Shown in pieces: positions 1 to 4,218 of a DNA stretch of 4,218 nt. This DNA comes from Escherichia phage Qbeta. Both the position numbers and the translations under genes were made by a program. Where the stretch lies: the sequence record FJ483842.1; one strand, given 5' to 3'. Every line of letters starts with the position of its first letter. Positions within the stretch are counted from its first letter, which is position 1. A model generated the notes under the pieces. That model saw nothing but the letters and a program-made list of their open reading frames with translations. It did not search any database and was not told the DNA's origin.

Positions 1-61
1 GGGGGACCCCCCTTAGGGGGTCACCTCACACAGCAGTATTTCACTGAGTATAAGAGGACAT
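1..61 (+). promoter_or_regulatory. 5' untranslated leader of a ssRNA phage genome, with a terminal G/C hairpin (C-run 7..12 pairing with G-run 16..20) and the A2 ribosome binding site (GAGG at 54..57)
   Basis: Seen in sequence: the window opens GGGGGACCCCCCTTAGGGGG, in which five Cs can pair with five Gs around a 3-4 nt loop; purine-rich AAGAGGA (52..58) lies 4 nt upstream of the ATG at 62. Established knowledge: levivirus genomes start with a G-run and a stable 5' hairpin, whose complement is the 3' end of the minus strand. Confidence 0.6.
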
Positions 62-1324
62 ATGCCTAAATTACCACGTGGTCTGCGTTTCGGAGCCGAT
101 AATGAAATTCTTAATGATTTTCAGGAGCTCTGGTTTCCAGATCTCTTTATCGAATCTTCCGACACGCATCCGTGGTACACACTGAAAGGTCGTGTGTTGA
201 ACGCTCACATGGATGACCGCTTACCTAATGTAAGTGGTCGCCAAGTACGGCGTACTCCACATCGCGCTACTGTTCCGATTGCCTCTACAGGCCTTCGTCC
301 AGTAACAACCGTTCAGTATGATCCCGCAGCACTATCGTTCTTATTGAACGCTCGTGTTGATTGGGATTTCGGTAATGGCGACAGTGCGGACCTTGTCATT
401 AAAGACTTTGTTTTCCGTACCTTTGCACCTAAGGATTTCGATTTCTCGAATTCCTTAGCTCCTCGTTATACCCAGGCCTTCTCCGCCTTTAATGCCAAAT
501 ATGGCGTTATGATCGGTGAAGGGCTCGAGACTATAAAATATCTCGGGCTTTTACTGCGCAGACTGCGTGAGGGTTACCGCGCTGTTAAGCGCGGCGATTT
601 ACGTGCTCTTCGCAGGGTTATCCAGTCTTACCATAAAGGTAAATGGAAACCGACTACTGCTGGTAATCTCTGGCTTGAATTTCGTTATGGCCTTATGCCT
701 CTCTTCTACGACATCAGAGATGTTATGTTAGATTGGCAGAGCCGCCATGATAAGATTCAACGCCTCCTTCGATTTTCAGTTGGTCATGGTGAGGACTACG
801 TTGTCAAGTTTGACAACTTGTATCCCGCCTTAGCCTACTTTAAACTGAAAGGTGAGATTACTCTCGAACGCCGTCATCGTCATGGCATATCTTACGCGAA
901 TCGCGAAGGATATGCTGTTTTCGATAACGGTTCCCTTCGGCCTGTGTCCGATTGGAAGGAACTTGCCGTCGCGTTCATCAATCCTCACGAAGTTGCTTGG
1001 GAGTTAACTCCTTACAGCTTCGTTGCCGATTGGTTTTTGAACGTTGGCGACATACTTGCTCAGCAAGGTCAGCTATATCATAATATCGAGATCGTAGATG
1101 GTTTCGACAGACGTGACATACGGTTCAAATCATTCACTATTAAAGGTGAACGAAATGGACAGCCTGTTAACGTATCTGCGGACTTATCTACTATCGATAC
1201 ATTTTATAGTCGACTTCATGCTAGCAATATTCCGTTCGCTACACTAGATCTCGATACTACCTTTAGTTCGTTTAAACACGTCCTAGATAGTATCTTTTTA
1301 TTAACCCAACGCATTAAGCGTTGA
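62..1324 (+). CDS. A2: Maturation protein A2 (pilus attachment protein; in Qbeta also the lysis protein, a MurA inhibitor)
   Basis: ORF of 420 aa, ATG at 62 preceded by a Shine-Dalgarno-like AAGAGGA, TGA stop at 1322..1324. It is the first gene, as in the levivirus order maturation - coat - replicase. The protein (MPKLPRGLRFGADNEILNDFQELWFPDLFIESSDTHPWYTLKGRV...) matches my recollection of Qbeta A2 along its whole length, with scattered substitutions; Qbeta A2 is also 420 aa. Confidence 0.93.
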   Translation: MPKLPRGLRFGADNEILNDFQELWFPDLFIESSDTHPWYTLKGRVLNAHMDDRLPNVSGRQVRRTPHRATVPIASTGLRPVTTVQYDPAALSFLLNARVDWDFGNGDSADLVIKDFVFRTFAPKDFDFSNSLAPRYTQAFSAFNAKYGVMIGEGLETIKYLGLLLRRLREGYRAVKRGDLRALRRVIQSYHKGKWKPTTAGNLWLEFRYGLMPLFYDIRDVMLDWQSRHDKIQRLLRFSVGHGEDYVVKFDNLYPALAYFKLKGEITLERRHRHGISYANREGYAVFDNGSLRPVSDWKELAVAFINPHEVAWELTPYSFVADWFLNVGDILAQQGQLYHNIEIVDGFDRRDIRFKSFTIKGERNGQPVNVSADLSTIDTFYSRLHASNIPFATLDLDTTFSSFKHVLDSIFLLTQRIKR

Positions 1325-1345
1325 AACTTTGGGTCAATTTGATCA
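1250..1345 (+). promoter_or_regulatory. Probable S-site region (S1/replicase binding site upstream of the coat start), including a U-rich tract near 1290..1310
   Basis: Seen in sequence: an A/U-rich stretch (TATCTTTTTATTAA at about 1293..1306) at the 3' end of A2, just upstream of the coat initiation region. Established knowledge: Qbeta replicase binds an S-site at about nt 1247..1346 through ribosomal protein S1, which represses coat translation. The boundaries are taken from the literature by position, not derived from this sequence. Confidence 0.35.
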
Positions 1346-1746
1346 TGGCAAAATTAGAGACTGTTACTTTAAGTAACATCGGGAAAGATGGAAAGCAAAC
1401 TCTGGTCCTCAACCCGCGTGGGGTAAATCCCACTAACGGTGTTGCCTCGCTTTCAGAAGCGGGTGCAGTTCCTGCATTGGAGAAGCGTGTTACCGTTTCG
1501 GTATCTCAGCCTTCTCGTAATCGTAAGAACTACAAGGTCCAGGTTAAAATCCAGAACCCGACCGCTTGTCCTGCAAACGGTTCTTGTGACCCATCCGTTA
1601 CTCGCCAGGCATATGCTGACGTGACTTTTTCGTTCACGCAGTATAGCACCGATGAGGAACGAGCTTTTGTTCGTACAGAGCTTGCTGCTCTGCTCGCTGG
1701 TCCTCTGCTGATCGATGCTATCGATCGACTGAACCCAGCGTATTGA
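1345..1746 (+). CDS. cp: Major coat (capsid) protein
   Basis: ATG at 1345..1347 and leaky TGA stop at 1744..1746 give 133 codons. The translation (MAKLETVTLSNIGKDGKQTLVLNPRGVNPTNGVASLSEAGAVPALEKRVTVSVSQPSRNRKNYKVQVKIQNPTACPANGSCDPSVTRQAYADVTFSFTQYSTDEERAFVRTELAALLAGPLLIDAIDRLNPAY) is near-identical to the Qbeta coat as I recall it, including the two Cys of the disulfide-forming loop. The ORF-track start at 1321 is a TTG that overlaps the A2 stop and is not the true start. Confidence 0.95.
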   Translation: MAKLETVTLSNIGKDGKQTLVLNPRGVNPTNGVASLSEAGAVPALEKRVTVSVSQPSRNRKNYKVQVKIQNPTACPANGSCDPSVTRQAYADVTFSFTQYSTDEERAFVRTELAALLAGPLLIDAIDRLNPAY

Positions 1747-2334
1747 ACATTGCTCATTGCCGGTGGTGGCTCAGGGGAAAACCCCGATCCGGTTGATCCG
1801 GATCCACCGATTGATCCGCCGCCAGGGACAGGTAGTTATACTTGTCCCTTCGCAATTTGGTCTCTGGAAGAGGTTTATGAGCCTCCTACCATTGATCGAC
1901 CGTGGCCTATCTATCGTGCTGTTGAACTCTCGTCTCGCAAGTTTGATGTTGCCCTTGATGATCTCTTGGGTAACACTAAATGGCGTGACTGGGATTCTCG
2001 GCTTAGGTATACCACGTTCCGCGGTTGCCGTGGCAATGGTTATATTGACCTTGATGCGACTTATCTCGCTACTGATCAAGCTATGCTCGATCAGAAGTAC
2101 GATATTCGCACGGGCAAAAGACCTGGTGCCTTTGGCAAAATTGAACAATTTATTTATCTTAAGTCGATAAATGCATATTGTTCTCTCAGCGATATTGCGG
2201 CCTATCACGCCGACGGCGTAATAGTTGGCTTTTGGCGCGATCCATCTAGTGGTGGTGCCATACCGTTTGACTTCACTCAGTTTGATAAGACTAAATGTCC
2301 TATTCAAGCCGTGATAGTCGTTCCTCGTGCTTAG
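1345..2334 (+). CDS. A1: A1 read-through protein (minor capsid protein): coat protein extended through the UGA at 1744..1746, about 329 codons
   Basis: Seen in sequence: the 1750..2334 ORF is in the same frame as the coat, and only the single TGA at 1744..1746 separates them. The stop is followed by A (UGA-A, a leaky context). The extension begins with a Gly/Pro-rich linker (GGGSGENPDPVDPDPPIDPPPGTGS) and ends ...CPIQAVIVVPRA, followed by tandem stops TAG TAA (2332..2337). Established knowledge: Qbeta A1 arises from low-frequency read-through of the coat UGA by tRNA-Trp and is needed for infectivity. Confidence 0.85.
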
Positions 2335-2348
2335 TAACTAAGGATGAA

Positions 2349-2368
2349 ATGCATGTCTAAGACAGCAT
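2349..2368 (+). promoter_or_regulatory. Replicase translational operator hairpin (coat-protein binding site) enclosing the replicase start codon
   Basis: Seen in sequence: ATGCATGTCTAAGACAGCAT folds as an 8-bp stem (2349-2352 and 2354-2357 pairing with 2361-2368), with a bulged A at 2353 and a 3-nt loop UAA (2358..2360). The replicase ATG (2353..2355) lies inside the stem. Established knowledge: this is the architecture of the Qbeta operator through which coat protein dimers repress replicase translation. Confidence 0.7.
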
Positions 2369-4122
2369 CTTCGCATAACTCTCTTAGCGCACAATTGCGC
2401 CGAGCTGCGAACACAAGAATTGAGGTTGAAGGTAACCTCGCACTTTCCATTGCCAACGACTTAATGTTGGCATATGGTCAATCGCCATTTAGTTCTGAGT
2501 CTGAGTGTATTTCACTCAGCCCGAAATTCGACGGAACCCCGGATAACTTTAGGATAAATTATCTTAAAGCCGAGATCATGTCGAAGTATGACGATTTCAG
2601 CCTAGGTATTGATACCGAAGCTGCTGCATGGAAGAAGTTTCTAGCAGCAGAGGCTGAATGTGCTTTAACGAACGCTCGTCTCTATAGACCTAACTACAGT
2701 GAGGATTTCAATTTCTCACTGGGTGAGTCGTGTCTTCACATGGCTCGCCGAAAAATAGTTAAGTTGATAGGAGATGCTCCGTCCGTTGAGGGTATGTTGC
2801 GTCATTGCCGATTTTCTGGCGGTGCCACAACAACGAATAACCGTTCATATGGTCATCCGTCCTTCAAGTTTGCGCTTCCACAAGCGTGTACGCCTCGGGC
2901 TTTGAAATATGTTTTGGCTCTTAGAGCTTCAACGCATTTCGATATCAGAGTTTCTGATATTAGCCCTTTTAATAAAGCAGTTACTGTACCAAAGAACAGT
3001 AAAACCGATCGCTGTATTGCTATCGAACCCGGTTGGAATATGTTTTTCCAATTAGGTATCGGTGGCATTTTACGTGATCGGTTGCGTTGTTGGGGTATCG
3101 ACCTGAATGATCAGACGATAAACCAGCACCGCGCTCACGAGGGCTCCGTTACTAATGATTTAGCAACGGTTGATCTCTCAGCGGCAAGCGATTCTATATC
3201 TCTTGCTCTCTGTGAGCTCTTATTACCTCCAGGTTGGTTTGAGGTCCTTACGGATCTCAGATCACCTAAGGGGCAATTGCCTGACGGTAGTGTTATTACC
3301 TATGAGAAAATTTCTTCCATGGGTAATGGTTACACATTCGAGCTCGAGTCGCTTATTTTTGCTTCTCTCGCCCGTTCCGTTTGTGAGATACTGGACTTAG
3401 ACTCATCTGAGGTCACTGTTTACGGAGATGACATTATTTTGCCATCCCGTGCAGTCCCTGCTCTTCAGGAAGTCTTTAAGTATGTTGGTTTTACTACCAA
3501 TACTAAAAAGACTTTCTCTGAGGGGCCGTTCAGAGAGTCGTGCGGTAAGCACTACTATTCTGGCGTAGATGTTACTCCCTTTTACATACGTCGCCGCATA
3601 GTGAGTCCTGCCGATTTAATATTGGTTTTGAATAACCTATATCGGTGGGCCACGATTGACGGCGTATGGGATCCTAGAGCCCATTCTGTATATCTCAAGT
3701 ATCGTAAGCTGCTGCCTAAACAGCTGCAGCGTAATACTATACCTGATGGTTACGGTGATGGTGCTCTCGTCGGATCGGTCTTGATCAATCCTTTCGCGAA
3801 AAACCGCGGGTGGATCCGGTATGTTCCGGTGATCATAGACCATACAAGGGACCGAGAACGCACTGAGTCAGGATCGTATCTCTACGATCTTTTCTCGCGC
3901 TGCTTCTCGGAAAGTAACGATGGGTTGCCTCTAAGGGGTCCGTCGAGTTGCGATCCTGTATATCCACTTGCCATAGATCAGCTTATATGTAAGAGTAATC
4001 CTACAAAAATAAGCAGATCTACTGGTAAGTTTGATGTACAGTATATCGCGTGCAGTAGCCGTGTTCTGGCACCCTACGGGGTCTTCCAGGGCACGAAGGT
4101 TGCGTCTCTACACGAGGCGTAA
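2353..4122 (+). CDS. rep: RNA-dependent RNA polymerase, replicase beta subunit
   Basis: ORF ending at TAA 4120..4122. Starting at ATG 2353 (AGGA at 2341..2344, 8 nt spacer) gives 589 aa, the size of the Qbeta beta subunit; the in-frame ATG at 2344 would add MKC but sits on top of the SD. Catalytic motifs are intact: motif A Asp at 3172..3174 (VDLSAASD) and motif C YGDD at 3421..3432. The sequence MSKTASSHNSLSAQLRRAANTRIEVEGN... matches my recollection of Qbeta replicase, with substitutions. Confidence 0.95.
   Translation: MSKTASSHNSLSAQLRRAANTRIEVEGNLALSIANDLMLAYGQSPFSSESECISLSPKFDGTPDNFRINYLKAEIMSKYDDFSLGIDTEAAAWKKFLAAEAECALTNARLYRPNYSEDFNFSLGESCLHMARRKIVKLIGDAPSVEGMLRHCRFSGGATTTNNRSYGHPSFKFALPQACTPRALKYVLALRASTHFDIRVSDISPFNKAVTVPKNSKTDRCIAIEPGWNMFFQLGIGGILRDRLRCWGIDLNDQTINQHRAHEGSVTNDLATVDLSAASDSISLALCELLLPPGWFEVLTDLRSPKGQLPDGSVITYEKISSMGNGYTFELESLIFASLARSVCEILDLDSSEVTVYGDDIILPSRAVPALQEVFKYVGFTTNTKKTFSEGPFRESCGKHYYSGVDVTPFYIRRRIVSPADLILVLNNLYRWATIDGVWDPRAHSVYLKYRKLLPKQLQRNTIPDGYGDGALVGSVLINPFAKNRGWIRYVPVIIDHTRDRERTESGSYLYDLFSRCFSESNDGLPLRGPSSCDPVYPLAIDQLICKSNPTKISRSTGKFDVQYIACSSRVLAPYGVFQGTKVASLHEA
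2545..2870 (+). promoter_or_regulatory. Approximate M-site (internal replicase binding site) within the replicase gene
   Basis: Established knowledge only: in Qbeta the M-site lies at about nt 2545..2867. It is placed here by positional homology, since the window appears collinear with Qbeta with a +1 offset. I did not fold this region and cannot confirm the branched structure. Confidence 0.3.
2973..2980 (+). other. Candidate upstream partner of the long-range pseudoknot with the 3'-terminal hairpin loop
   Basis: Seen in sequence: TAAAGCAG (2973..2980) can pair antiparallel with CTGCTTTG (4196..4203) in the loop of the 3'-terminal hairpin, 7 Watson-Crick pairs plus one G-U. Established knowledge: Qbeta needs a pseudoknot between the 3' hairpin loop and a sequence about 1200 nt upstream, near the M-site; the distance here is about 1220 nt. 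Confidence 0.45.
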
Positions 4123-4218
4123 CCTGGGAGGGCGCTATTATAGCGCCTAGTTGTGAATCAATTATCACAACTACTCTTACGAGTGAGAGAGGGATCTGCT
4201 TTGCCCTCTCTCCTCCCA
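4123..4218 (+). promoter_or_regulatory. 3' untranslated region with three hairpins (4131..4147, 4151..4170, 4185..4212) and the 3'-terminal CUCCCA tail, the initiation site for minus-strand synthesis
   Basis: Seen in sequence: GGCGCTA/TAGCGCC stem (4131-4137 with 4141-4147, loop TTA); TTGTGA/TCACAA stem (4151-4156 with 4165-4170); GAGAGAGGG/CCCTCTCTC 9-bp stem (4185-4193 with 4204-4212, 10-nt loop ATCTGCTTTG), followed by a single-stranded CTCCCA 3' end. Established knowledge: levivirus RNAs end in ...CCCA, with replicase initiating opposite the penultimate C. Confidence 0.7.

Follow-up and report, generated by a model that had tools for sequence, protein, structure and literature searches.

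The complete plus-strand genome of a Qbeta-group RNA phage close to strain VK, written as DNA

The stretch analyzed here, sequence record FJ483842.1 (hereafter the window, i.e., the whole 4218 nucleotides (nt) at full length), is almost certainly the complete plus-strand genome of a natural strain of Qbeta, the F-pilus-specific RNA phage of Escherichia coli, with strain VK as its nearest relative. Its place is in Fiersviridae, Qubevirus, as Qubevirus durum, i.e., the former Allolevivirus genogroup III. A sequence-only reading of the same letters had proposed a complete Qbeta-like single-stranded RNA phage genome, and this was borne out by full-length collinear matches to Qubevirus genomes only. 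That reading had also called the system well described rather than novel, rightly so, because three of the encoded proteins are found in GenBank letter for letter: the strain has been deposited before, the virus is a textbook one, and as biology the window is already known and adds nothing. The feature at issue is thus the entire stretch:

1 to 4218, plus strand: read as the complete plus-strand genome of a Qbeta-group single-stranded RNA phage, given as DNA (end-to-end match to VK, exact GenBank proteins)

Genome identity and the alternatives to a natural strain

A megablast search against 50,697 phage records matched 84 of them, all from the Qbeta group (Qubevirus), and in 33 of these 84 a single place covered at least 80% of the window. 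The best genome match was FJ483843.1, Qbeta VK from Japan, at 95.7% identity, with positions 1-4218 of the window aligned to positions 1-4218 of the relative. Identity to Qbeta strains is 92-96% at the nucleotide level, and the best matches are all classed as Qubevirus durum. After VK, the same search gave the following genomes:

FJ483844.1: strain BZ1, 92.8% nt identity
FJ483840.1: strain TW18, 92.1% nt identity
AB971354.1: prototype Qbeta, isolate Anc(P1), 4217 nt, 92.0% nt identity
FJ483841.1: strain HL4-9, 91.8% nt identity
AF052431.1 and AF059242.1: M11 and MX1, 75-76% over the aligned 82% of the window

An exact-sequence look-up returned the A2, coat and replicase proteins letter for letter as ACT66737.1, ACT66738.1 and ACT66740.1, respectively, all from entries named Escherichia phage Qbeta. 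Whole-genome alignment found zero insertions or deletions relative to VK and TW18, and the coordinates of the window's coding sequences equal those annotated in these two strains; the sole insertion or deletion relative to prototype Qbeta is an extra 5' G in the window. Similarity to VK is uniform along the genome (92-98% per 300-nt segment), and VK is the closest strain in 26 of 27 sliding segments, with BZ1 narrowly ahead in 1501-1800 (0.970 vs 0.967). Mosaicism or recombination was considered and set aside, there being no sign of it in the sliding-window identity along the whole genome.

The termini are those of a genome with both ends intact. The window opens with GGGGGACCCCCC at the 5' end and closes with CUCCUCCCA at the 3' end; positions 1-5 are GGGGG and positions 4215-4218 are CCCA, so that the 5' G-run and 3' CCCA that had been pointed out from the letters are both present and the window carries the conserved termini of Qubevirus. 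Across a ten-genome comparison, comprising eight Qubevirus durum genomes together with NL95 and SP, the 5' terminal G-run occurs, as sequence, in 10 of 10 aligned 5' ends, and none of the ten departs from the others in the last 8 nt. Over the final 20 nt, five of the six close strains agree completely, with one difference in HL4-9 and one each in M11, MX1, NL95 and SP. The claim that 4218 nt is the canonical length stands for the window and VK but not for the prototype record AB971354, which has 4217 nt and one 5' G fewer. There are five 5' G residues in the window and the other FJ4838xx genomes and four in Qbeta Anc(P1), which accounts for 4218 vs 4217 nt; the extra G could be genuine variation or could stem from the way in which the 5' end was determined.

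Most of the matched Qbeta records come from evolution experiments (with the hosts 'Hfr Hayes' and 'IJ1862'), and the window might on that ground be a laboratory-evolved or engineered derivative of prototype Qbeta. This is highly improbable: 8% of positions differ from the prototype, and the differences are spread evenly along the genome, with synonymous changes outnumbering non-synonymous ones by about 2.4:1 (231.5 vs 97.5 over the four frames) and per-site values of 0.13-0.38 for synonymous (dS) and 0.017-0.06 for non-synonymous (dN) substitutions. Moreover, the nearest relative is a natural Japanese isolate, VK, and the protein accessions lie within a natural-strain genome series, between ACT66733-36 of HL4-9 (FJ483841) and ACT66741-44 of VK (FJ483843). 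A natural strain is thus favored over a laboratory derivative because the divergence far exceeds what passage experiments produce.

Less probable still is that the letters represent a DNA copy of a Qbeta genome, be it a complementary DNA (cDNA) clone or an endogenous insertion, in a plasmid or chromosome. The use of T would suit such a copy, as would the existence of infectious Qbeta cDNA plasmids in laboratories, but no search result supports it. The window starts at the first genomic G and stops at the terminal CCCA, with vector or host flank absent; the match to VK spans the first to the last base and therefore leaves no flanking sequence. The proteins that match exactly are recorded on a 4218-nt entry, and searches of 5,426 complete E. 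coli genomes and of 72,556 plasmids turned up 0 similar sequences. The larger DNA replicon with non-phage flanks that the sequence-only reading had named as its counter-evidence is accordingly not seen at either end or in these collections.

The least probable assignment, to the point of being negligible, is to Qubevirus faecium (genogroup IV: SP, FI, NL95) or to another genus of Fiersviridae such as the MS2-like Emesvirus: gene order, read-through and terminal sequences are held in common with genogroup IV, but A2 and the replicase reach an amino acid (aa) identity to NL95 and SP of no more than 49-50% and 57-58%, respectively, and the product sizes differ (A2 of 442-450 aa, replicase of 576 aa), while in MS2-like phages lysis has a gene of its own and the read-through domain is missing, as against the Read-through domain and want of a conserved overlapping open reading frame (ORF) in the window. 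Both assignments are refuted by the genome matches, product sizes and protein identities.

Two points do limit the identification as a complete Qbeta RNA genome. The letters use T for U, and the physical RNA nature of the molecule is not readable from them, although the records of the relatives describe genomic RNA; and the functions of the RNA elements described below are assigned from position and conservation relative to Qbeta. Nothing found contradicts a complete Qbeta genome, and nothing in the window departs from known Qbeta biology. This has a bearing on how the remaining signals are to be taken: they are best read as features of a plus-strand RNA, i.e., as hairpins, translational coupling and read-through, and a search for bacterial or DNA-phage promoters, terminators and minus-strand genes would be the wrong frame for them.

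Protein-coding genes and alternative frames

The ORF list places all four protein-coding frames on the plus strand, and together with the Pfam matches it confirms the order A2, coat/A1, replicase and the sizes of 420, 133, 329 and 589 aa that had been read from the letters:

62 to 1324, plus strand: A2 maturation/lysis gene, 420 aa (Pfam PF03863 Phage_mat-A, E = 1.6e-134)
1345 to 1746, plus strand: coat gene, 133 codons (Pfam PF01819 Levi_coat, E = 3.8e-60)
1747 to 2334, plus strand: A1 read-through extension (Pfam PF16814 Read-through, E = 1.1e-96)
2353 to 4122, plus strand: replicase beta subunit (RNA-dependent RNA polymerase), 589 aa (Pfam PF03431 RNA_replicase_B, E = 1.1e-216)

All four Pfam matches lie far above the cut-offs of their families. 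By Nei-Gojobori counts between the window and five close strains, dN/dS lies between 0.03 and 0.29 across the four frames (0.03-0.13 vs VK), and all four products are under purifying selection.

The A2 gene is preceded by a Shine-Dalgarno sequence, AAGAGGA, at 52-58. Its product gives a full-length match of 925 bits to the Qbeta A2 of PDB entries 5vlz/5vm7; its aa identity to Qbeta A2 is 93.6% and its dN/dS is 0.06-0.12. The coat gene ends in a leaky UGA at 1744-1746, and a UGA followed by a purine is kept in 10 of 10 genomes, as UGA-A in the eight durum genomes and as UGA-G in NL95 and SP. Folding of the region around this codon (1725-1790) gave no signal of local structure (z = 0.02). Read-through of the UGA would yield the A1 protein of 329 aa (1345-2334), closed by UAG at 2332-2334 with UAA directly after it as a tandem stop. 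The read-through domain matches, over its full length, the A1 protein of PDB 3rlc/3rlk (E = 3e-118), and its dN/dS of 0.10-0.21 in its own frame shows that the extension is truly protein-coding and held by purifying selection.

The read-through extension is also the least constrained of the coding regions (dN/dS 0.10-0.21 vs 0.05-0.09 for the replicase). Of the 57 substitutions found in the window alone, 16 fall in this extension, although it makes up only 14% of the genome, and in HL4-9 it carries a 3-nt insertion.

The replicase matches the Qbeta replicase of PDB 3mmp/4q7j/3agp with 1285 bits over residues 1-589. Its YGDD motif lies at residues 357-360 (nt 3421-3432), with the GDD at residue 358 in 10 of 10 genomes. 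The mechanically called ORF begins at 2344, three codons before a second AUG at 2353, and it is this second AUG that is annotated as the replicase start in all relatives. The upstream in-frame AUG at 2344-2346 (MKC-MSKT...) falls within the Shine-Dalgarno-like AAGGAUGA, and the arrangement is the same in six close Qbeta strains. A separate observation concerns database clustering: the 90%-identity cluster with the Qbeta replicase also includes many EF-Ts proteins of 283 aa from Pectobacterium, Kluyvera and Klebsiella, which is a clustering artefact and not biology; it likely arises via PDB fusion chains of the form EF-Ts-EF-Tu-linker-replicase (3agp_A, 1289 aa), through which unrelated proteins become linked.

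Outside of these four frames, the longest candidates are an alternative-frame ORF of 137 aa at 1757-2170 on the plus strand, which begins with UUG and overlaps the read-through domain, and one of 178 aa at 1771-2307 on the minus strand; each is uninterrupted only in this strain. Both contain 1-4 stop codons in each of the five nearest strains, and they are unlikely to be genes because of these stops; that either is translated as a strain-specific overlapping gene has only the slimmest of chances. Among the other alternative-frame ORFs, all those of at least 68 aa are disrupted in one or more of these five strains, and three short ones (51-61 aa) remain intact throughout the five, with breaks only in M11 and MX1. 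Alternative-frame and minus-strand ORFs were rejected as genes, as they are not conserved among the relatives, and they probably reflect chance. Their dismissal as irrelevant on the minus strand, made earlier from the letters, holds in that none is conserved, and the minus strands of Qbeta-type phages are not known to be translated.

The window appears to have no separate lysis gene, which fits the Qubevirus arrangement with A2 as the lysis protein. In Qbeta, A2 brings about lysis by inhibiting MurA, and the structure of Qbeta A2 has been solved in complex with MurA (PMC10610835). The A2 of the window is 93.6% identical to that MurA-complexed protein.

RNA elements and the proposed mechanism

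When the genome was divided into ten consecutive 400-nt segments, all folded far better than dinucleotide shuffles, with a mean z score of the minimum free energy (MFE) of -6.8 for the plus strand and -6.1 for the complement. Such pervasive predicted structure is as expected for a levivirus-like genome. An Rfam search at a permissive E-value returned only a chance microRNA match (E = 0.076, far under the gathering score); Rfam holds no family for the Qbeta operator or 3' domain, and the missing match therefore says nothing. The individual elements are as follows:

1 to 27, plus strand: 5' terminal G-run hairpin GGGGGACCCCCCUUAGGGGGUCACC, predicted fold
2349 to 2368, plus strand: putative coat-protein translational operator hairpin, predicted in the MFE fold of 2335-2380
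2546 to 2868, plus strand: putative M-site (internal replicase/S1 binding), placed by homology only to Qbeta 2545-2867
2974 to 2980, plus strand: candidate internal partner of the pseudoknot, AAAGCAG, single occurrence in the window
4125 to 4218, plus strand: 3' terminal domain of four hairpins closed by a helix that includes the 3' CCCA, from the MFE fold and covariation
4196 to 4202, plus strand: candidate 3' partner of the pseudoknot, loop of the last hairpin, CUGCUUU, single occurrence in the window

At the 5' end, nt 1-61 fold with an MFE of -23.6 kcal/mol (z = -3.05). An 8-bp stem, a 3-nt loop of UAA and a bulged A2353, which is the A of the replicase AUG, make up the hairpin at 2349-2368. 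Its pairing is kept in 91% of cells over the ten genomes vs 16-48% with the partner slid, and two of its pairs covary. By position and pairing, it would correspond to the coat-protein translational operator, a role described for this hairpin in Qbeta (PMC10610835).

The 3' untranslated region (UTR; 4123-4218) folds with an MFE of -48.1 kcal/mol and z = -6.73, and 0 of 200 shuffles fold as well. Over the ten genomes, 89% of cells in the 3' domain are paired and 11 pairs have changed on both sides, a level that 0 of 500 shuffles reach. At 4136/4142, in the first hairpin of the 3' UTR, Qbeta has C-G and VK has U-G, and the window, with U-A, completes the compensatory change that is half made in VK. 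At 4150/4171, in another hairpin, the A-U of Qbeta is replaced by G-C both in VK and in the window. Hairpins conserved with compensatory changes thus uphold the earlier view that the structures in this stretch are RNA structures. A small use of the window also lies here: it adds one more natural strain to the study of covariation in Qbeta RNA structure, as in the C-G, U-G, U-A series.

Two complementary 7-mers fit the long-range pseudoknot of Qbeta at the sequence level. AAAGCAG is kept at the homologous place in 10 of 10 genomes, 1213-1244 nt from the 3' end, and CUGCUUU is kept in nine of the ten, with CUGCUUA in HL4-9. The pseudoknot is needed for Qbeta replication according to Klovins and van Duin 1999, as cited in PMC4176380. 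The M-site of Qbeta, at nt 2545-2867, is an internal binding site for replicase/S1, and long-range interactions are described along with it (PMC4176380). Its coordinates are shifted by +1 in the window because the sole insertion or deletion relative to Qbeta is the extra 5' G. The putative M-site region is 92.9% identical to Qbeta and 83.6% identical to M11, vs 72% for the whole replicase gene in the latter.

Taken together, the mechanism would follow established Qbeta biology, with all the required parts present in the sequence and their functions carried over from Qbeta. The genomic RNA itself would serve as the messenger. A2, as the single maturation protein, would bind the F pilus and, via MurA inhibition, lyse the cell; the coat protein would build the capsid, and rare read-through of the UGA up to 2334 would supply the minor capsid protein A1. 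The replicase beta subunit would join with host EF-Tu, EF-Ts and S1 in a copying complex, which would begin minus-strand synthesis at the 3' CCCA, aided by the M-site and by the long-range pseudoknot (2974-2980 with 4196-4202). Coat dimers that settle on the 2349-2368 hairpin would turn off replicase translation and nucleate packaging.

Comparison with known Qbeta relatives

The known relatives can be arranged along a gradient of likeness to the window. At the near end, VK (FJ483843.1) shares the length of 4218 nt, equal coding-sequence coordinates and the want of any insertion or deletion, with 95.7% nt identity; about 180 substitutions, mostly synonymous, separate the two, and aa identity is 97.4% for A2, 99.2% for the coat, 94.9% for the read-through extension and 98.3% for the replicase. 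Prototype Qbeta (AB971354.1) likewise has the four genes with equal product lengths, at 92.0% nt identity, and is identical to the window in the replicase operator hairpin, the intergenic regions and the last 20 nt. It differs by one 5' G fewer and by 8% substitutions, with aa identities of 93.6% for A2, 96.2% for the coat, 90.8% for the read-through extension and 94.2% for the replicase.

M11 and MX1, which form a divergent branch of Qubevirus durum, keep the architecture, the UGA-A context, the YGDD, the pseudoknot 7-mers and the GGG/CCCA ends. They differ in having only 70-71% nt identity over the full alignment (75-76% over the 82% aligned by megablast) and in product sizes, with an A2 of 421 aa and a replicase of 586-588 aa. 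Among the reference records, NC_001890.1 ('Escherichia phage Qbeta', 4215 nt) gave the same match to the window as MX1 (AF059242.1) did, i.e., 75.3% with the same coordinates and bit score, and it bears annotations such as 'head maturation protease' and 'minor head protein'. As its match is identical to that of MX1, it looks like MX1 with generic annotation, and a comparison restricted to RefSeq would understate the similarity of the window to Qbeta proper (92%).

At the far end, SP and NL95 of Qubevirus faecium share with the window the gene order, the read-through A1, the operator core GCAUGUC-NAA-GACAG and the conserved 3' end. They differ in their longer genomes (4248-4276 nt), in an A2 of 442-450 aa and a replicase of 576 aa, and in aa identities to the window of 42-59% for A2, the read-through extension and the replicase, as against 77-81% for the coat.

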